Shown here in pieces: positions 13,805 through 21,269 of a DNA stretch of 64,000 nucleotides. Origin of the DNA: Ostreococcus lucimarinus (taxonomy: Eukaryota); the NCBI GenBank assembly GCA_000092065.1, contig CP000581.1; one strand, given 5' to 3'. Both the position numbers and the translations under genes were made by a program. How positions within the stretch are numbered: position 1 is the stretch's first letter; each line of letters starts with the position of its first letter. The notes beneath the pieces were generated by a model. That model was not told the DNA's origin. It worked only from the letters and a program-made list of their open reading frames with translations, and did not search any database.

Positions 13805-16270
13805 TTAGTAGCTAGGTGGATCGATCGGTTCTTGGTTTTCGCTGGGATCGTGCAGCAAGACACGCTCCTCGATGCAGTCGTGCGTGCGAGGGGTGAGCTT
13901 AATGACTGTGTTCAGAGGAATCGAAAGCGTCGCGGCCTCGTCGCGATCGAGCCCGGCAAAGTAGGCGTAAATTAAACGCAACACGCCTTGATGCCCGACG
14001 ATGAGCACGTCCTCGCGATAACTCTCGAGCTCTTGCACCAGAGGGTCCAGGCGTGCGATGACGTCCAAGTAGCTCTCACCGCGCGGATAGCGGTACGAGA
14101 GCTTATTCTGTCGTCTCAGCTCGTATTCGCGTGGATATGCGGCGCGAATTTCTTCGTACGTCATACCGTCGCAGACGCCGGCGTAAATCTCGTCGAGATT
14201 TCTCAGCACGCGCGGAGCCATTTGGATCCAATCTTTACCACCGCCTGTTTTCACTTTGTCGTGCTTGAGATGACGCGCAGTGAGCTTGGTGCGCTGCAAA
14301 GACGACGTCCAAAGCCTCACCGGTCGTGCTTCGCCGTTCTCTGGATCACGGGTAATCACTCGGTCGGCGAACTCTGCGAGTTTCTGCGCGTACGCCTCGC
14401 CCATCGGAGTGAGTCCAGAGTCACCACCGATTTTACCGTGCGAATTATACTCGCTCTGCCCGTGTCGCGACAAATAAATCGAACACGTTGTCGCGTGCAT
14501 GTTCGAAAGAAACTGCGCCACGCGGCCGAGCAAGAACCCGTGGACTCGATTGAATTCGACTCGCCTTCCGCAATCTATGAGTTTTATGAAGCTTAAATCT
14601 ACCTCATCGTCGCTGCCCATGGGCTCGTACTCTTTTTCGTAGTTGCGAACGCGCTGCATGAAGTCTTTGAACGCTTGTTCCTCTGTCATGACGCCGGAGT
14701 AATCGCAGTTGTTGATTTTTGCCATCCGAACGTTCTTTTCCACCACCGCTTCGTCGGTACATATCGACTCTATGAAAAGCACTTTCAGTGGTAGCGTACC
14801 GATTTGCTCGATCAACCATCTACGACGCTCTCGCGTGCTATTCGTCGCGTCAAAGATTGCGACGCGTCCGCTGTCGACGCCGCGCTGCTCGAGAAAGCTC
14901 ATGCTATCTTCCTGGAACAGGAAGTCAATCATATCCTTCAGTGCTGCTCGCGCAAACTTCATTCGCTGCTCTTCATTCTCTTTGGTAAAGTAATCGGCCG
15001 TTTGACCGACGCCCGCATCTCGACGACGATATTCACCGACGTTGAACACGCGTGTGTTCGCACCGTGGAAAAATCGTAAATACTGACACAGTCGCTTCGC
15101 CATGTGCGTTTTACCTCGCGCCGGCAACCCTACCATAATCAACACGTGTTTTTCACCAATAATTCCCTGATCACCGTATTTTGGCGGCGGTATACTCTGC
15201 GGCGTAGGATTTTCCGCGGTAACAAACTGATCCTTGAAATCGCCGAATGTTTGCGGAAAACCGCCGGCGTACTTGGCTGTCGCACTGCGCTCCTCCGGCG
15301 CGCTTGTACTGGTTTGCTTCCCCATGACCGTACTCGTTTCGGTGTTTTCCGCCGACCCCGGTGTCACTACGAAGTTTGATCGCGCTTGCGGCGACGTTTC
15401 TTCTATGAGCGCGCTCGTGAACCGATGCACGGTCGGTGGCGACAACGAGGACGCCGGTAAAAACGAAGCCAACGACGCCGACTTCCCCCCTAGCCCTCGA
15501 GCTGCAACGAACCCTGGCGATGGTAACGCGCTGATTCCCTCACCCTCGCTCGTCGTCGTCGACTCGAAACTCGCGTCAGAGCTTCGCTTCCTCGCGTGTC
15601 CGCTCGCGCCGCTCCCAAACATCGCGCGTCCGACCTCGTCCTCGTCGTCGCCCGCTTTCGGCGACACCGCCTCAAGCATCGTCGTCAGCGCCGAGCTCAA
15701 TCCCGCGAGCGGCGTCGCTCGTTTCGGCGCGACGGGCGGTCGCGGCGATTTGCTTCGCCGCGTCCCGTCGTCTTCGCTCGTGCGCGGCGGCGTCGTCGTC
15801 GACCCGGACAGCGCGCGCACTTCGCCGGCGTCGAACGACATCCTCCGCACCGCGTCTTCGCACACGGTCAAGCACTCGCTCGTCGCGCGCGTCGCCGAGC
15901 CATCGTCGGACGACATGAACGATGCGATGCGCAGCGCAATGCCGACCGGGGCGACGCCAGAACGCGCGGCGGGCGTTGACTTGGCGAATCGCATCGACCG
16001 ACGGTGGAGACGACGCGCGAGCGACGCGCGAGGACGACGATGACGAGCGCGTCGACGTCGTCCAATCACTCGCTCCCGGCGCTGTGGCGACACGCGATGA
16101 AGAAGTGGGGACGTTGGCAGGGCTACGCGTGGAGCACGGTGGTCGTCGCGGGCGCCGCCGCGTACGCGATGTCGCTCGTCGTCGACGCGGGGGGCGAGAA
16201 AAGCAAAGTGAAGCGCGACGCAGACGGTGGCGACGCGAGTCGTGGCGAACGTAGACGTAGATAGCGGCAA
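13805..16270 (-). CDS. 6-phosphofructo-2-kinase/fructose-2,6-bisphosphatase (bifunctional) with a long low-complexity N-terminal extension
   Basis: Kinase P-loop GLPARGKTHMAKRLCQYL. Histidine-phosphatase motif LSRHGQSEYN with ...VGHQGVLR. The true start within the N-terminal low-complexity region is uncertain. The stop lies 36 bp from the stop of the convergent upstream gene. Confidence 0.9.
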   Translation of the reverse strand: MPLSTSTFATTRVATVCVALHFAFLAPRVDDERHRVRGGARDDHRAPRVALPTSPLLHRVSPQRRERVIGRRRRARHRRPRASLARRLHRRSMRFAKSTPAARSGVAPVGIALRIASFMSSDDGSATRATSECLTVCEDAVRRMSFDAGEVRALSGSTTTPPRTSEDDGTRRSKSPRPPVAPKRATPLAGLSSALTTMLEAVSPKAGDDEDEVGRAMFGSGASGHARKRSSDASFESTTTSEGEGISALPSPGFVAARGLGGKSASLASFLPASSLSPPTVHRFTSALIEETSPQARSNFVVTPGSAENTETSTVMGKQTSTSAPEERSATAKYAGGFPQTFGDFKDQFVTAENPTPQSIPPPKYGDQGIIGEKHVLIMVGLPARGKTHMAKRLCQYLRFFHGANTRVFNVGEYRRRDAGVGQTADYFTKENEEQRMKFARAALKDMIDFLFQEDSMSFLEQRGVDSGRVAIFDATNSTRERRRWLIEQIGTLPLKVLFIESICTDEAVVEKNVRMAKINNCDYSGVMTEEQAFKDFMQRVRNYEKEYEPMGSDDEVDLSFIKLIDCGRRVEFNRVHGFLLGRVAQFLSNMHATTCSIYLSRHGQSEYNSHGKIGGDSGLTPMGEAYAQKLAEFADRVITRDPENGEARPVRLWTSSLQRTKLTARHLKHDKVKTGGGKDWIQMAPRVLRNLDEIYAGVCDGMTYEEIRAAYPREYELRRQNKLSYRYPRGESYLDVIARLDPLVQELESYREDVLIVGHQGVLRLIYAYFAGLDRDEAATLSIPLNTVIKLTPRTHDCIEERVLLHDPSENQEPIDPPSY

Positions 16271-16325: not shown

Positions 16326-17528
16326 TCAGTCGCGGCGGCGGCGCTGCTGCCTCTGAATTTCGTTCATAGATCGAGATACCGAGTTCGTGGTGTCTATGCC
16401 TAAGCGCATTCCCGGCAGTTGAGCCTCGGGCATCATGCGCACTTGCTTAGGTCGATCTGACCGCCGATAGACGGCTGTCGTCGGAGCGGATTCGGGCAAA
16501 CGAGCCGCGCAGCGACGACAAAAACGAGCGTCTGTCTCGTGCATGCTCAAGCCGCATTGCGGGCAGTCGCGATCATCGAACAGTCCTCTTCTCGAGATCG
16601 ATTCGTCCAACTCGTCAAAGGTGCCTGACATCCTAATGAAGCCGTTTTCGTCCTCCTCCTCGTCCTCGTCCATCATCTTGCGCAAATTCTCCGCGCCACT
16701 TATCGCGGCGAGCTTGGCGAGCTGACCCGGGACGACGATTAAAGCGACGATGATAGATATCACCGTCGCCACGCGTCCTCCCGCAGTGACGACTTCGAAC
16801 GGCTGACCGATCCCCGTGAGCGTTAGGATGGCCCAATACAACGTATCGTTCAAGTTGTGCACCATCGGGTTCGTGCCGACTTCCAAATCGTAGACAACGC
16901 CTGCGGCGATGACGAAGATGCACACAAACTCCGCACCGATACCGATAAGCTGCACGCCCATGCTGTCACTCTTCACTAATCCAAACAACACCGAATCCGT
17001 GGATCGGTCTAACAAACGCAACAAACGTAACACTCGAAGTAATCTCAAAAAGCGATAAAAAGGCGTGCTCCGATCGAGAACGTCGACGATGGCCAAAAGC
17101 GGTGGCACCGTGCTCGCCACGTCGACGACCGTCACCGGTTTCGTCCAAAACTTCAAGCTGAAATCTGCCGCGTACGCGCGCAGGCAAAGTTCGAATAAAA
17201 ACAACAAGTTGTACGCATCCTCGATGGACGTCAGCGAATCCATCGAGATGATGCCCGTGTACCAGGGAATGTCCTCGCGGTACAGGATATCCCAGCCACC
17301 CAAACTCGACACGTTATACGTCTCCAACAAGAACGTCCCGAACACGATCCCACTCGAGATCACCGCCCACCACCCGCTGGCGTCCAAATCCGCCAGCGCC
17401 AATCGCAGCGCCTCCTTCGGAGTCAGGCGTTGTTTCCGCCTCGCCGGCGACGACTCCGCGAGCGTCGTCGTCGTCGTCGTCGCCTCCTCCGTCGCCTTCG
17501 ACTGTCGCTGCGCCCGCGTCGCGGTCAT
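16326..17528 (-). CDS. Single-domain 6TM voltage-gated cation channel-like protein with a C-terminal zinc-ribbon (400 aa)
   Basis: Segments S1-S6 are recognisable. The S4 segment has a regularly spaced Arg motif: [19 protein letters not shown]. The pore helix and filter read [15 protein letters not shown]. The C-terminal CPQCG...CRRC is a Zn-ribbon. I place the start at ATG 17528. The ORF upstream of that (to 18920) is low-complexity and overlapped by the Nudix gene, so it is rejected. Confidence 0.8.
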
Positions 17529-18197
17529 CGCGCGCCTCGCGCGCGTCCCCCCGCGCCAGGCGCCCTCGTTCGCGCGCGCGCGCGAGAGAGAGTCGCGAAT
17601 CGCCGCGCGCGTCGTCGTCGTCGTCGTCCCTCGCGTCGTCGTCGTCGTCGTCGTCGTCGCCCGCGTCGTCGTCGCGCGCGCGCGTCGAGTCGCGCCGTAC
17701 GACGTCGACGCGCGCGTCGCGCATCTCGCGCATCTCGCGCATCTCGCGCCCGTCGCCGTCGCCGGCGCGCCCGTCGTCATCGTCTCGACCGTCGCCTCGA
17801 CGTCGCCTCGAAGTGACGTCGGTCGTCCGTCCGTCCGTCCGTCCGCCCGCGCGACGCGCGCGGCGGGCGAAATCGCGCGCGCGCGGCGCCGCGCCGTGCG
17901 TCCGTCGACTCGAGATCGACGCCCGCGACGCGCGCCGACCGACGACGCCGACCGACGACGCCGGGCGGCGCGGTCGCCGCGACCCACTCCGCGGCGCGCG
18001 GCGTCCACGGCGCGTCGGCGGACGACCGGACCGCGCGACGGCGGCGGCGACCGACGGCCGGGGCGCGGGCCGTGGACGACGGGATCCGAACCAGGCCCAG
18101 ACCCGCGGCGCGCGCGGGCCGGCCGAGCCTCGAGCGACGATCGCGGTGACGACGACGCGGCGAGCGTTTTCGAGCCCGCTCGAGGCGCGCGTCGACG

Positions 18198-18755
18198 ATG
18201 GCGGCGCGCACGGGAAGAGATAATCAGCGATACAACGCGGTGAATCAACGATTGGTGGCTGGATGCATATGTCATCGACCCGCGACGAAGGTTCGCGTGG
18301 AAGATTCCGCCGACGCGGACGCGTTCGCGCGCGCGCGCGAGGACGGCGTCGAAGTCCTCATGCTCAACTCGAAGAAAGGCGCGAGAGTGGATGGAAGGGA
18401 TTTGATCTTTCCAAAGGGTGGATGGGAACTCGATGAGACCGCATCCGAGGCCGCGGCGCGCGAGAGCATGGAAGAAGGCGGTGTCGCGGGGACGCTGAGC
18501 GCTTCGGAAAAGACGTACGAATTCGTGTCGAGGTCGAGGGTCAAGGCTGGATGCGCCGGAGACGAGGCCAAGTGCGTGGCGCACGTGTTCACCATGGAGG
18601 TGAAGTGCGAGTACGAGACGTGGCCTGAGGAAGGCGAGCGAACGAGGTATTGGCTCTCCCCGGACGAGGCGTGGAGACGATGTAAGCACGATTGGATGCG
18701 TCAGGCGCTCGCCGACCATCTCGCCGACGGGTTCGCGTTGGAAAAGAAGTTGTGA
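18198..18755 (+). CDS. Nudix hydrolase of the DIPP/Aps1 type
   Basis: Nudix box [23 protein letters not shown] matches the GX5EX7REUXEEXGU pattern. The FPKGGWE context is typical of diphosphoinositol-polyphosphate phosphohydrolases. Confidence 0.85.
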
Positions 18756-18977: not shown

Positions 18978-21269
18978 ATGGCGTCCGTCCCAAATCGGCG
19001 ACAAACGTCGAACGCAGTCGCCGCCGAACGATCGGAGCGTGGGCAGCGCGCGTCGACGAGCGGTGCGCGGCGAGGCGGTACGGACCCGGCGCTGGGTGTT
19101 GAGCCCAAGACTGCGGTTGAATCGAGCAATGCGACGGCGAGCGCGCCCGTGGATGGGCCGAAGTCCGCGGGTGAAGTCGCATCACCACCACCCGCGGTTG
19201 ATGCGATTGGGGACGGAAAGGAGATGGACGATTCCACGTACGACGACGAAGCCGAGGGCGAAGACAAAGCCGGTGATGCGACAGAGGAGGAGGAGGAGGA
19301 GGAGGAGGAGGAGGAGGAGGAGGAGGAGGAGGACGAAGACGACGAGGAAGAGGACCAAGAAGAAGAAGACGACGAGGAAGAAGGCGAGGACGAGGAAGAT
19401 GTGGCTGCGAACGATGGTCAGCAAAACGACGTCGCCAACTGCATCGGCGAGCACTGCTCCGACGCTATGAACGAGCAGATGTACCGCATCGTGGAAGACG
19501 TAGCGCTAAAAGCGGGGTTGGACGTGAACTCAAATGCAGCGGATGCGGAGAATGAGTTACTCGCGTTCGCAACTGGGGCAAGCGACGCCCCTCATACGAT
19601 GCAGGAAGAAGCGACGGATGAGCGCGTGGCGGCGCTAACCATGACGGTGATGATCGGCATCGTGTTGCTGACGGTGATGTTGGGCGTGATGTTGAAGCAC
19701 TACAAATCTCGATGGTTGAACTCGAGCGGTGCCGCTCTTCTACTCGGTATCGCCGTTGGATGCTTTGTGTTCCTTGGCTTGGAGCTATCTTATGAGACAA
19801 TGCCCGAAAACATGCGCTACACCATCAAGGCCTTCGCCCAGTGCATGCGGTTCGATACAAAGTTCTTCTTCTTAGTGCTCCTTCCGCCTTTGATTTTTGA
19901 AGCCGGTTACACGTTGCATCCGACGACGTTTTTTCAAAATGCCGACGCGATCTCAATGTTTGCTTTCGTAGGATCGCTCACGAGCGCGATATCGACCGGC
20001 GTGTTGATGTACGTGGCGGGCTTACTGGGCTGGAGTTATGAGTTTTCGTTGAAGAGCGCCATGTTGTTTGGAGCGCTGATTAGCTCAACCGATCCAGTCA
20101 CGACGCTTAGCATTTTCAGCGAATCACCGATATCCCCTGACGTGCACGCCATGATATTGGGCGAGAGTATTCTGAATGACGCCGTCACCATTGTGTATTT
20201 TGAGTCGCTCCTGCTTGGCATCGGCAACGCCGGCGATGTGACGGCGCTCGAGATGTTACAAACTGATGACGCTTTCACCCCGCTCATTTTACAAGCAATC
20301 GGCACATTCATGCTCGCTTTTGGGCAAGCGACTGCCGTTGGTGTTGGTATCGGGTGTTTCTCCGCCTTGCTGCACAAATACGTCAGCACGACGAGCTATT
20401 TCGAGGAAGGATGGGCCGTCGACTCGACGCTCGTGCTTTTGTTCCCGTACCTGAGTTATTCGCTCGCTGAATCTTTTGAGCTGAGCGGAATCGTATCCGT
20501 TCTATTCACGGGCATCATTATGGGTCGCTACACGCGTCCAAACCTCGCGCGAGCACCGCGCATGGTGACGATGTGCATTTTCAAAATTTTCAGCTTCCTT
20601 TCGGAGACGTTCGTGTTTGTATACATGGGGAGCGCGATGTACTCGTTCCGTGTCGAGCACGTAGTCACTGCGATAGTGGGACTGGTTGCATGCTATGTTG
20701 GACGCGCTGTGAACATATTCCCCGGATCTCTGTTACTGAACATGTCGTCGGCGAGGAAGAAGTCGCCAATTACACCGAATACGCAGTATCTCTTGTGGTT
20801 TTGCGGATTGAGAGGAGCCGTCGCCTTTGCGCTCGCCGTCAAGGCGCAGCGTGATCTTGGTGAACAAGGCCACGTCATGTTTGATGTGACACTCTTCATC
20901 GTGGCGTTCACGATAGTCATCCAGGGTGGTATGACACGTTGGGTCGTCGATTCGCTTCTCGAACCGACGACAGAAGCGCCCGCACAGCAAGACGAACCGA
21001 ACAAGCTGAGGCGCAACAGAAGCCTGGGAAGCTTTTTTAGATACATGAACGACATCGCAGAAAAGGTCATCGCGCCCATCTTGCTCGCGAAACGAGAGGA
21101 CGAGCACCTTGATGAGACCACATCTCTCTTGACGGGTGCGAGCGCAAGCGCGAGAGGGGCTCAACGCGAAGAGCTCGGCGAATCGCCGCGGTCGGCCAGA
21201 CACAGCGGGCTGGCGAGCGAGACCGTGGAGGCTGCGGTGGACAACACATTCTCACGAGATAATAGTTAG
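18978..21269 (+). CDS. Na+/H+ exchanger (NHE/NHX family) with an acidic poly-Glu N-terminal region
   Basis: Cation/proton exchanger core LLPPLIFEAGYTLHPTTFFQN, with multiple TM helices. The N-terminal poly-E comes from a (GAG)n tract. Confidence 0.85.
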   Translation: MASVPNRRQTSNAVAAERSERGQRASTSGARRGGTDPALGVEPKTAVESSNATASAPVDGPKSAGEVASPPPAVDAIGDGKEMDDSTYDDEAEGEDKAGDATEEEEEEEEEEEEEEEEDEDDEEEDQEEEDDEEEGEDEEDVAANDGQQNDVANCIGEHCSDAMNEQMYRIVEDVALKAGLDVNSNAADAENELLAFATGASDAPHTMQEEATDERVAALTMTVMIGIVLLTVMLGVMLKHYKSRWLNSSGAALLLGIAVGCFVFLGLELSYETMPENMRYTIKAFAQCMRFDTKFFFLVLLPPLIFEAGYTLHPTTFFQNADAISMFAFVGSLTSAISTGVLMYVAGLLGWSYEFSLKSAMLFGALISSTDPVTTLSIFSESPISPDVHAMILGESILNDAVTIVYFESLLLGIGNAGDVTALEMLQTDDAFTPLILQAIGTFMLAFGQATAVGVGIGCFSALLHKYVSTTSYFEEGWAVDSTLVLLFPYLSYSLAESFELSGIVSVLFTGIIMGRYTRPNLARAPRMVTMCIFKIFSFLSETFVFVYMGSAMYSFRVEHVVTAIVGLVACYVGRAVNIFPGSLLLNMSSARKKSPITPNTQYLLWFCGLRGAVAFALAVKAQRDLGEQGHVMFDVTLFIVAFTIVIQGGMTRWVVDSLLEPTTEAPAQQDEPNKLRRNRSLGSFFRYMNDIAEKVIAPILLAKREDEHLDETTSLLTGASASARGAQREELGESPRSARHSGLASETVEAAVDNTFSRDNS
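19285..19332 (+). repeat. (GAG)16 trinucleotide microsatellite encoding poly-Glu inside the NHX gene
   Basis: Perfect gag repeats are read directly. GA-rich imperfect repeats extend to about 19400. Confidence 0.9.

Follow-up and report, generated by a model that had tools for sequence, protein, structure and literature searches.

An Ostreococcus lucimarinus voltage-gated channel with a green-algal filter lacking the K+ signature and a predicted zinc-ribbon tail

What would pass through a voltage-gated channel whose K+ signature has disappeared, and where does its cysteine-rich tail come from? These questions are raised by a gene on the minus strand at 16326-17528 of a 64,000-nucleotide stretch of the Ostreococcus lucimarinus genome (GenBank assembly GCA_000092065.1, contig CP000581.1), the whole of which is called the window below. 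An earlier note, made from the letters of the DNA, had described a single-domain voltage-gated channel with an odd selectivity filter (TLTGIGQ) and a C-terminal zinc ribbon, and had left ion selectivity and ribbon function open. Here the product is described as a Kv-type (voltage-gated K+ channel-type) subunit with a complete voltage sensor. Its filter defines a whole green-algal clade and appears to stand in the register of the short filters of NaK and of cyclic nucleotide-gated (CNG) channels, and its ribbon is common to a large family of Kv-type channels with ordinary K+ filters. The explanation that we favour, and hold to be moderately probable, is a voltage-gated tetrameric cation channel that has lost K+ selectivity, may be permeable to Ca2+ and Na+, and carries an inherited ribbon tail with a possible role in assembly.

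The gene and its voltage sensor

The list of open reading frames (ORFs) and the translation gave an unbroken ORF of 400 codons plus a stop at 16326-17528 on the minus strand, so the coordinates and frame given before were right. By exact-sequence look-up the product was identical to XP_001415711.1/ABO94003.1 of O. lucimarinus CCE9901, recorded as “VIC family transporter: potassium ion channel”. Its orthologue in O. tauri bears the name “Voltage-dependent potassium channel”, and MMETSP transcripts are on record for the O. mediterraneus orthologue. These channel annotations are automatic and based solely on family membership. A second copy (paralogue) of the gene was looked for across the rest of the window and none was found.

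A Pfam scan detected Ion_trans (E = 7.7e-14) and Ion_trans_2 (E = 1e-4). An AlphaFold2 model, for which a 70-sequence alignment was the input, had a mean predicted local distance difference test score (pLDDT) of 77, with 80-94 in the transmembrane (TM) core. Its helices were S1 (53-76), S2 (96-120), S3 (125-147), S4 (156-174), S5 (190-216), the pore helix (226-238) and S6 (249-294), the last running on as one long helix up to residue 294; there were thus six TM helices and a re-entrant pore loop between S5 and S6. The top match of a profile search against the PDB was KCNQ2 (7.8e-17), followed by Kv1.2, Kv4 and Nav repeats, and the best Foldseek matches of the model were Kv4.3, KCNQ2, Kv1.3 and Kv1.2. 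The six-TM voltage-sensor-plus-pore layout reported earlier was therefore borne out by Pfam, by the predicted helices and by the Foldseek matches, and the pore domain is Kv-like by sequence and by predicted fold.

Conservation was measured on a 70-sequence family alignment with identities down to ~30%. Invariant residues were R162, R165, R168 and R171 of S4, E113 and R117 of S2, L235, G239, Q242 and P243 of the filter region, and E200, C203, F205, P267 and Q269. Conserved in at least 90% of the sequences were R159, F110 and D136 of the voltage sensor and T236, L237, T238, I240, G241, F244 and E245 of the pore. S4 carries arginine at every third position (159, 162, 165, 168 and 171), as had been noted, which gives at least four basic residues in this spacing, and a gating-charge transfer centre can be recognized in the sequence (F110-x-x-E113 in S2 and D136 in S3). 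The Kv-type voltage sensor is complete, with five to six S4 arginines, the S2 F-x-x-E and the S3 Asp. The arginine ladder and charge-transfer centre are shared with KCNQ2/Kv7.2, Kv1.2, Kv4.x and KvAP, the best sequence and fold matches; in contrast to these solved Kv channels, the protein lacks a T1 domain and the K+ signature. No cyclic nucleotide-binding family was found by Pfam scan at E up to 0.1, and the AlphaFold2 tail consisted of an acidic helix, the zinc ribbon and a disordered region, with no C-linker or cyclic nucleotide-binding domain (CNBD). NCBIfam gave a single match, to the hyperpolarization-activated Kv model of Methanocaldococcus; it scored 29 bits where the cut-off is 300, and is uninformative on gating polarity. 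The features of the gene, all on the minus strand, are as follows.

16326-17528, minus: channel subunit coding sequence, 400 residues plus stop (ORF, identity to XP_001415711.1, Pfam Ion_trans E = 7.7e-14)
17529-17780, minus: possible N-terminal extension of 84 residues, transit-peptide-like, or 5′ untranslated region (open frame, simple-repeat DNA)
17301-17372, minus: S1, residues 53-76 (AlphaFold2 helix; a 13-residue stretch invariant among Mamiellales)
17169-17243, minus: S2, residues 96-120, with F110-x-x-E113-x-x-x-R117 (AlphaFold2 helix 96-120, conservation)
17088-17156, minus: S3, residues 125-147, with acidic D136 (AlphaFold2 helices 125-129 and 131-147, conservation)
17007-17063, minus: S4 voltage sensor, residues 156-174, with Arg 159/162/165/168/171 and, in addition, R175 (sequence, conservation)
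16881-16961, minus: S5, residues 190-216 (AlphaFold2 helix; E200, C203 and F205 invariant)
16794-16853, minus: pore helix and selectivity filter, residues 226-245, with G239-I-G-Q-P243 (conservation, register alignments)
16704-16784, minus: S6 inner helix, residues 249-275, with invariant P267 and Q269 (VPGQ), the presumed gate hinge (AlphaFold2 helix 249-294)
16644-16670, minus: acidic run DEDEEEDEN, residues 287-295, on the helical extension of S6 (acid-rich in all orthologues)
16509-16565, minus: predicted four-Cys zinc ribbon, residues 322-340 (conservation, consensus match, pLDDT)
16386-16418, minus: Mamiellales tail motif, residues 371-381 (R, G and D invariant in a 13-sequence alignment; low AlphaFold2 confidence)
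16332-16388, minus: terminal basic helix, residues 381-399 (full AlphaFold2 model; 95-114 in the tail-only model; pLDDT 82-88)

The acid-rich character of the run on the S6 extension is conserved, and the Mamiellales tail motif strictly so.

The selectivity filter and its register

The filter motif spans residues 235-245, LTLTGIGQ starting at 235 and TLTGIGQ at 236. The filter T-G-I-G-Q-P-F lacks the K+ signature T-x-G-[YFL]-G-[DE], as does that of every clade member, and a BacNav/Cav-type acidic-plus-Trp motif (TLESW-like) is absent from the sequence, as the earlier note had held. In a profile alignment with KCNQ2 the pore lay opposite ITLTTIGYGDKYPQT, LTLTGIGQP being paired with ITLTTIGYG. 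Relative to KCNQ2, Kv1.2 and BK, Thr is changed to Gly, Tyr to Gln and Gly to Pro (a single-sequence alignment with BK needed a two-residue gap at the filter). HMMER, hhalign and MAFFT placed G-I-G-Q-P where K+ channels have T-V-G-Y-G, and the Tyr-Gly-Asp that completes the K+ signature is swapped for Gln-Pro-Phe. Since this signature is missing, the database name “potassium channel” is not justified; the gene is databased under a generic and probably misleading name, and such annotations in algal genomes can mislead.

A family pore profile was aligned to reference pores of NaK, CNGA1, AtCNGC1 and NaChBac; the AtCNGC1 stretch differed from PDB 9j34 at two positions, both outside the filter. 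Against NaK, Q242 fell opposite D66 of TVGDGN, the Pro opposite N68 and F244 opposite F69. Against CNGA1, GIGQP fell opposite TIGET. Against the cyclic nucleotide-gated channels of plants (CNGCs) AtCNGC1 and MtCNGC15b, GIGQ was placed without a gap onto SLGQ by HMMER and hhalign alike, and again when the pore-helix Trp served as the anchor; in the hhalign comparison with the PDB entry of MtCNGC15b, G239-I-G-Q242 lay gapless on S344-L-G-Q347 at a probability of 2.7%, which is not significant. A pore-only profile reached the NaK and NaK2CNG chains as well as Kv7 at E ~1e-3. As in NaK and CNG channels, the T-V/I-G register of the lower filter half is kept and the Tyr-Gly of the K+ signature is lost, but an acidic residue directly after the conserved Gly is absent, Gln242 being invariant there. 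The register therefore looks like the half-filter register shared by NaK, animal CNG and plant CNGC channels, which yields a concrete prediction of selectivity. Of the oddity claimed before, the absence of the K+ signature stands, and the idea that the filter cannot be classified does not, since its apparent register is this known one.

Published work on the reference channels gives this register its meaning. NaK (TVGDGN) and HCN channels retain only sites S3 and S4 and are non-selective, NaK becomes K+-selective when TVGDGN is changed to TVGYGD, and its selectivity is decided by the number of contiguous sites (PMC9822992). In MtCNGC15b the filter is S344-Q347 with a constriction formed by Gln347; PCa/PNa is ~1 and PNa/PK ~9, so that Ca2+ and Na+ are preferred over K+, and the Q347E change abolished the Ca2+ current (PMC12284214). 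Because the K+ sites have lost their Thr hydroxyl and their Tyr-Gly, the pore should resemble the short filters of NaK, CNG and CNGC channels. By analogy with these, the channel should have a short filter and not be K+-selective; the sequence is compatible with a simply non-selective pore and with one that prefers Ca2+ and Na+.

The likeness to each of these systems is partial. In NaK of Bacillus cereus and in NaK2CNG the lower half of the filter is kept and the upper half replaced, as here, but NaK has two TM helices, no voltage sensor and a filter one residue longer, with Thr and Asp where the Ostreococcus protein has Gly and Gln. The four-residue filter of plant CNGCs (AtCNGC1, 9j34; MtCNGC15b, 9kcu) ends in Gly-Gln, with the Gln ring as the constriction in the solved structure, and appears to share its register with the algal one when counted from the pore-helix Trp. 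These channels also have a C-linker, a CNBD, calmodulin sites and a degenerate S4, whereas the algal protein has none of these and a full arginine ladder; the likeness of the filters is probably convergent. In animal CNG channels TIGET aligns with GIGQP and the departure from the K+ filter is of comparable, clade-level extent, but they have Glu instead of Gln, are ligand-gated through a CNBD and lack a zinc ribbon. In a survey of eukaryotic Kv-like/CNBD channels, strong departures from TVGY/FG belonged to single sequences and not to clades, animal CNG being the only clade-level exception in its data set, in which plant CNGCs were not analysed (PMC7576140). From its sequences, the GIGQ clade would be a further clade-level departure beside animal CNG.

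A relationship to the single-domain channels BacNav/NaChBac and EukCat was considered and rejected. They are likewise built from a single six-TM subunit with a charged S4, and share a coiled coil with a paralogous GIGQ subfamily (see below). Their filter is acidic with a Trp (e.g. TLESW) and their pore-helix arrangement is different, and no pore alignment was obtained between the family pore profile and the NaChBac pore. EukCats have been described from diatoms, haptophytes and dinoflagellates, and not from prasinophytes (PMC6509283).

The green-algal clade and the probable origin of its ribbon

Among 5.8 billion proteins searched, 258 relatives came up, nearly all with the same ten-residue filter motif. 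Named members came from Ostreococcus, Bathycoccus, Pycnococcus, Pseudoscourfieldia, Pyramimonas and Chlorokybus (an early-diverging streptophyte). The motif is fixed in Mamiellales, Pycnococcus and Chlorokybus, and a TGNEQP variant occurs in Pyramimonas. A Chlorokybus-seeded search for members in land plants and other streptophytes gave only the same prasinophyte sequences. Subfamilies differ in their tails: a zinc ribbon with the filter TGIGQP in this gene, its orthologues, Pycnococcus and Chlorokybus; a C-terminal coiled coil with the filter TGIGQP (P0086-P0120); and a SAM domain with the filter TGNEQP (Pyramimonas-type). The filter thus defines the whole green-algal clade, including paralogues tailed by a coiled coil or a SAM domain.

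Several relatives were noted in passing. The coiled-coil sequences (P0086-P0120 and P0202-P0205) are GIGQ paralogues of related picoalgae that lack the ribbon and end in a heptad repeat, e.g. ELRAARARLRAFEREVDALRDENARL. In the Pyramimonas-type sequences P0088, P0209 and P0212 the filter reads TLTGNEQP or TGNDQP and a C-terminal SAM domain replaces the ribbon. Deviant filters among near relatives were FTSQGAPF (P0235, P0247 and P0317), TLTTIGTISPQT with a zinc ribbon (P0306), which resembles a CNG-type deletion, and TVGFGPAP with a zinc ribbon (P0233). P0232 and P0286 are two-repeat (2 × 6TM) relatives with the pores ATHGSPY and TTTGSGAP.

A profile search of 1.84 billion cluster representatives gave 6087 matches at E ≤1e-3. 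Next after the GIGQ family came channels of 240-600 residues with a TLTTVGFGD or TLTTVGYGD filter and the same C-terminal motif, such as WP_103426816.1 of the haloarchaeon Salinigranum rubrum and EP00871_P004713 of the red alga Galdieria phlegrea. These zinc-ribbon-tailed Kv-type channels, with examples in Nostoc, Microcystis, Vibrio, Shewanella and Bacteroides, were the nearest relatives in this search and in the tree described below. They have the same six-TM layout, the conserved S4-S5 linker motif (F/L)FG, an S6 hinge of the form P-x-Q (IPWQ, against VPGQ in the Ostreococcus protein) and the C-terminal signature. Their filter is TTVG(F/Y)GD with the ribbon 41-60 residues behind it; in the Ostreococcus protein the filter is TGIGQPF and the distance ~80. 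The solved structures closest to this sister family were Kv1.2, Kv2.1 and Kv4 (E ~1e-33); its PDB profile matches stopped at about position 229 of 268, and no solved chain covered the ribbon.

A neighbour-joining tree was built on the TM core only, with the ribbon left out and 100 bootstraps; it is a distance tree only, in which the deeper nodes are weak. The GIGQ/GNEQ clade was monophyletic (100% bootstrap) and nested in a canonical-filter group of algal, cyanobacterial and archaeal zinc-ribbon channels (81%), which was apart from a proteobacterial/Bacteroidota group (99%). Together with the shared ribbon signature, the tree supports the view that the K+ filter and the ribbon were ancestral, that GIGQP is derived and that the coiled-coil and SAM tails were later replacements. 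Equivalence with the cyanobacterial thylakoid channel SynK was also considered, and was rejected, SynK being a “core-only” channel without regular S4 charges or regulatory domains (PMC2853561).

The tail carries CPQC at 322 and CRRC at 337. These two CxxC knuckles are spaced as in zinc ribbons, ~11-13 residues apart (CPQC-x11-CRRC), and hold four of the six cysteines of the protein. In 32 ribbon-bearing algal members the C, C, H, D, A, C and C of the ribbon were invariant, so that the CxxC pairs, for which conservation in orthologues had been named as a check, are indeed conserved. The knuckle had a pLDDT of ~92 in the full AlphaFold2 model, which also returned S1-S6 and the pore helix, and 80-89 in a tail-only model; short strands flank each knuckle, and over both models the pLDDT was 80-93.

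Among the nearest neighbours listed, 59 of 78 canonical-filter representatives had the consensus C-x-x-C-G-(L)-x-x-H-x-x-D-A-x-(F/Y)-C-x-x-C (His in 57, Asp in 42 and Ala in 57 of the 59), and the Ostreococcus ribbon agreed with it at every conserved position. A scan of prokaryotic species, with one genome per species, gave at least 536 confirmed loci, 80 of which were inspected. The ribbon was encoded in all 80, 41-60 residues after GxGD. They included many cyanobacteria (Nostoc, Microcystis, Microcoleus and others), gammaproteobacteria (Vibrio, Shewanella and Dyella), Bacteroidota (including Bacteroides), planctomycetes, Methanosarcinales and Woesearchaeota. The earlier note was therefore right that a ribbon is present and wrong that it is unusual for channels, 59 of 78 representatives and 80 of 80 inspected loci carrying one. 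Its occurrence throughout a large canonical-filter Kv-type clade suggests that the ribbon was inherited from a K+-channel ancestor and is no peculiarity of this protein. In the inspected loci (L001-L080) the distance behind GxGD was nearly fixed, 44-50 residues in most, from Bacteroides to Methanosarcinales.

In the literature searched, outside which most subscription-journal papers lay, nothing was found on TLTGIGQ or GIGQ as a selectivity filter, on zinc ribbons in Kv channels, or on the characterization of any Ostreococcus channel or other family member. The filter was accordingly found outside the subfamilies of known selectivity, as had been suspected, and neither the filter clade nor the zinc-ribbon Kv family seems to have been described in this literature. 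A clade-wide, frozen loss of the K+ signature in an otherwise intact Kv-type channel is rare, and offers a natural experiment on the number of filter sites that a voltage-gated pore needs. A zinc ribbon behind S6 marks a very large Kv family of bacteria, archaea and algae, some of whose prokaryotic members are easily expressed, and may be a new cytoplasmic assembly or regulatory module. The gene set of Ostreococcus is among the smallest of eukaryotes, and a strictly conserved voltage-gated channel in it, probably not K+-selective and perhaps organellar, bears on cation signalling in picoalgae.

Proposed mechanism, alternatives and surroundings of the gene

In the mechanism that we propose, the gene product would be one subunit of a tetramer. 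In the algal clade TGIGQPF has taken the place of TTVG(F/Y)GD and has become frozen there. Of the K+ filter, the lower, T/G-I-G part alone would survive, the K+ sites formed by the hydroxyl of the first Thr (S4) and by Tyr-Gly (S1 and S2) being lost. Such a two-site filter, capped at an outer constriction by a ring of four Gln242 with a ring of Glu245 outside it, would hardly discriminate between Na+ and K+ and might let Ca2+ through as well. Membrane voltage would shift the S4 helix, and the S4-S5 linker would open the S6 bundle at the hinge of invariant Pro267 and Gln269; coupling would run through the long linker with its conserved (F/L)FG motif (the linker of the sister family aligns to that of Kv1.2). 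The ribbon would be a structural Zn(Cys)4 knuckle from the K+-channel ancestor on the cytoplasmic (or stromal) side. Its most likely job would be to assist subunit assembly or to stabilize the cytoplasmic end of the tetramer, partner binding and redox or zinc sensing being possible alternatives. An assembly role is favoured by the coiled coil or SAM domain, both oligomerization modules, that stands at the same place in sister subfamilies.

Several points weigh against this mechanism. Selectivity is read here from the register of the sequence alone, and only short stretches align with NaK, CNG and plant CNGC channels. MAFFT put a one-residue gap at the Tyr position and HMMER put it after the filter, which leaves the precise geometry uncertain. 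The filter opens with Gly and not with Thr or Ser, for which there is no characterized precedent, and no acidic residue directly follows the conserved Gly, unlike in NaK and CNG. As to the tail, Pfam zinc-ribbon families (Zn_Ribbon_1, DZR and DUF7575) scored 13-16 bits against cut-offs of 25-28; such thresholds, by missing the ribbon, may be the reason why this architecture has gone undescribed. The Foldseek matches of the tail-only model were zinc ribbons and fingers (L40e, RanBP2/NZF), all non-significant (E ≥0.3), and as a model-based likeness they would support no more than a “small zinc knuckle”. The ribbon starts 80 residues after Q242, behind the acidic helix, and its distance from S6 exceeds that in prokaryotic relatives by ~50 residues. 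The binding of zinc, the assembly of a tetramer and the ribbon's function are all predicted from sequence and model.

The pore could be read in other ways. That the channel is still a K+-selective one, its unusual filter selecting K+ by other means, we consider unlikely. The nearest relatives outside the clade are all canonical K+ channels, the pore helix and the T-L-T before the filter are K+-channel-like, the annotations say potassium channel, and a few K+ channels without the signature have been reported (TbIRK, PMC5429665), which also counts against the mechanism above. Yet T-x-G-[YFL]-G-[DE] is missing in every member, at three of the four K+ sites the contributing residues have given way to Gly, Gln and Pro, the annotations are family-based and automatic, and in NaK it is the number of contiguous sites that sets selectivity (PMC9822992). 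A channel that prefers Ca2+ and Na+ through a CNGC-like Gln ring, and so provides a single-domain Ca2+ entry path in prasinophytes, has a somewhat better, if still doubtful, claim. G239-I-G-Q242 lies gapless on S344-L-G-Q347 of MtCNGC15b, whose Gln347 constriction, ion preference and Q347E effect (PMC12284214) were given above, and there is little or no variation at Q242, P243 and the nearby E245. Against it, the likeness to plant CNGCs is limited to a few residues and non-significant, Pro follows the Gln where CNGCs have Asn or Gly, and the architectures are otherwise unrelated, the protein having no CNBD and its closest relatives being Kv1/Kv7-type. It is most improbable that the pore does not conduct at all and that the protein is a voltage sensor or a silent subunit co-assembling with the coiled-coil paralogue. 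Silent Kv subunits are known in animals, the filter is degenerate, and a paralogous GIGQ subfamily does exist in related picoalgae. However, nowhere is the protein more conserved, from Chlorokybus to Ostreococcus, than in its ten-residue filter motif, the S6 hinge residues are invariant, and the presence of the motif in both paralogue families argues for selection on permeation. The non-K+-selective cation channel set out above remains the explanation that we prefer for the pore.

For the tail, the chief alternative is that CxxC...CxxC acts as a redox or zinc switch with a regulatory role, or docks a partner protein, and is not an assembly element; we regard this as the lesser possibility, though a substantial one. 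The His, Asp and Ala between the knuckles are kept as strictly as the cysteines, beyond what a structural knuckle needs, the best (non-significant) fold matches include the protein-binding RanBP2/NZF fingers, and CxxC pairs are typical thioredoxin targets in plastids. On the other hand, the module is found equally in anaerobes, gut Bacteroides, marine gammaproteobacteria and archaea, and the coiled coil or SAM domain that stands in for it in sister groups suits oligomerization better. There is also no conserved partner gene nearby: no conserved gene neighbourhood was found around the 80 prokaryotic loci, the largest “cluster” being an antisense ORF over the channel gene.

The location of the channel bears on a further, bolder explanation. 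Nearly all eukaryotic members have N-terminal extensions of 60-200 residues, whereas the prokaryotic relatives have none. Within the extensions the first 40 residues have a basic, hydroxylated character and in most members include 0-3 acidic ones, and the O. mediterraneus transcripts encode a basic, acid-poor extension of this kind. These extensions look like organelle transit peptides and, together with the cyanobacterial affinity, make a plastid location plausible. On this basis the GIGQ channels might be organelle-targeted (plastid envelope or thylakoid), voltage-gated and Ca2+/Na+-permeable, descended from a cyanobacterial-type zinc-ribbon K+ channel that the green lineage had acquired and that then lost its K+ selectivity, with a Gln ring that converged on that of CNGCs and a ribbon serving as a new assembly or gating module, and would form a new single-domain class. 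The N-terminal extensions, the cyanobacterial homologues in the same 81% group and the SLGQ register match count for it, yet the whole combination strikes us as quite unlikely. If true, it would mean an unrecognized single-domain voltage-gated cation channel class in the smallest free-living eukaryotes, with a ribbon module shared with hundreds of uncharacterized prokaryotic Kv channels.

In the present gene an upstream in-frame ATG at 17780 would add 84 residues, the frame being open throughout. This extension is rich in Thr, Arg and Ala and poor in acidic residues, and the underlying DNA is simple-repeat; either ATG 17528 or ATG 17780 may be the start codon. Just upstream of the annotated start, 17529-17900 contains (CGT)n of ~22 copies, the 9-mer TCGCGCATC repeated 3.7 times, and (CGTC)n.

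From the identity of the channel protein the window is nuclear DNA of a prasinophyte green alga, and the genes around the channel agree with this. The neighbour at 13805-16270 (minus strand) encodes a bifunctional 6-phosphofructo-2-kinase/fructose-2,6-bisphosphatase (PFK2/FBPase2; 6PF2K E = 4e-65, His_Phos_1 E = 5e-33); its ORF includes a low-complexity N-terminus of ~370 residues, so the actual start is probably farther downstream. A Nudix hydrolase gene at 18198-18755 (plus strand) is divergent to the channel gene and is followed by a Na+/H+ exchanger gene at 18978-21269 (plus strand; PF00999, E = 3e-53), which has a long poly-Glu/Asp tract from (GAG)n at 19284-19399. Several ORFs of 100-390 residues, e.g. 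17065-18243 (plus strand), lie over the channel gene or the DNA upstream of it, antisense or in another frame, and translate into sequences rich in Arg and Ala, as is typical of chance ORFs at 60-65% GC.

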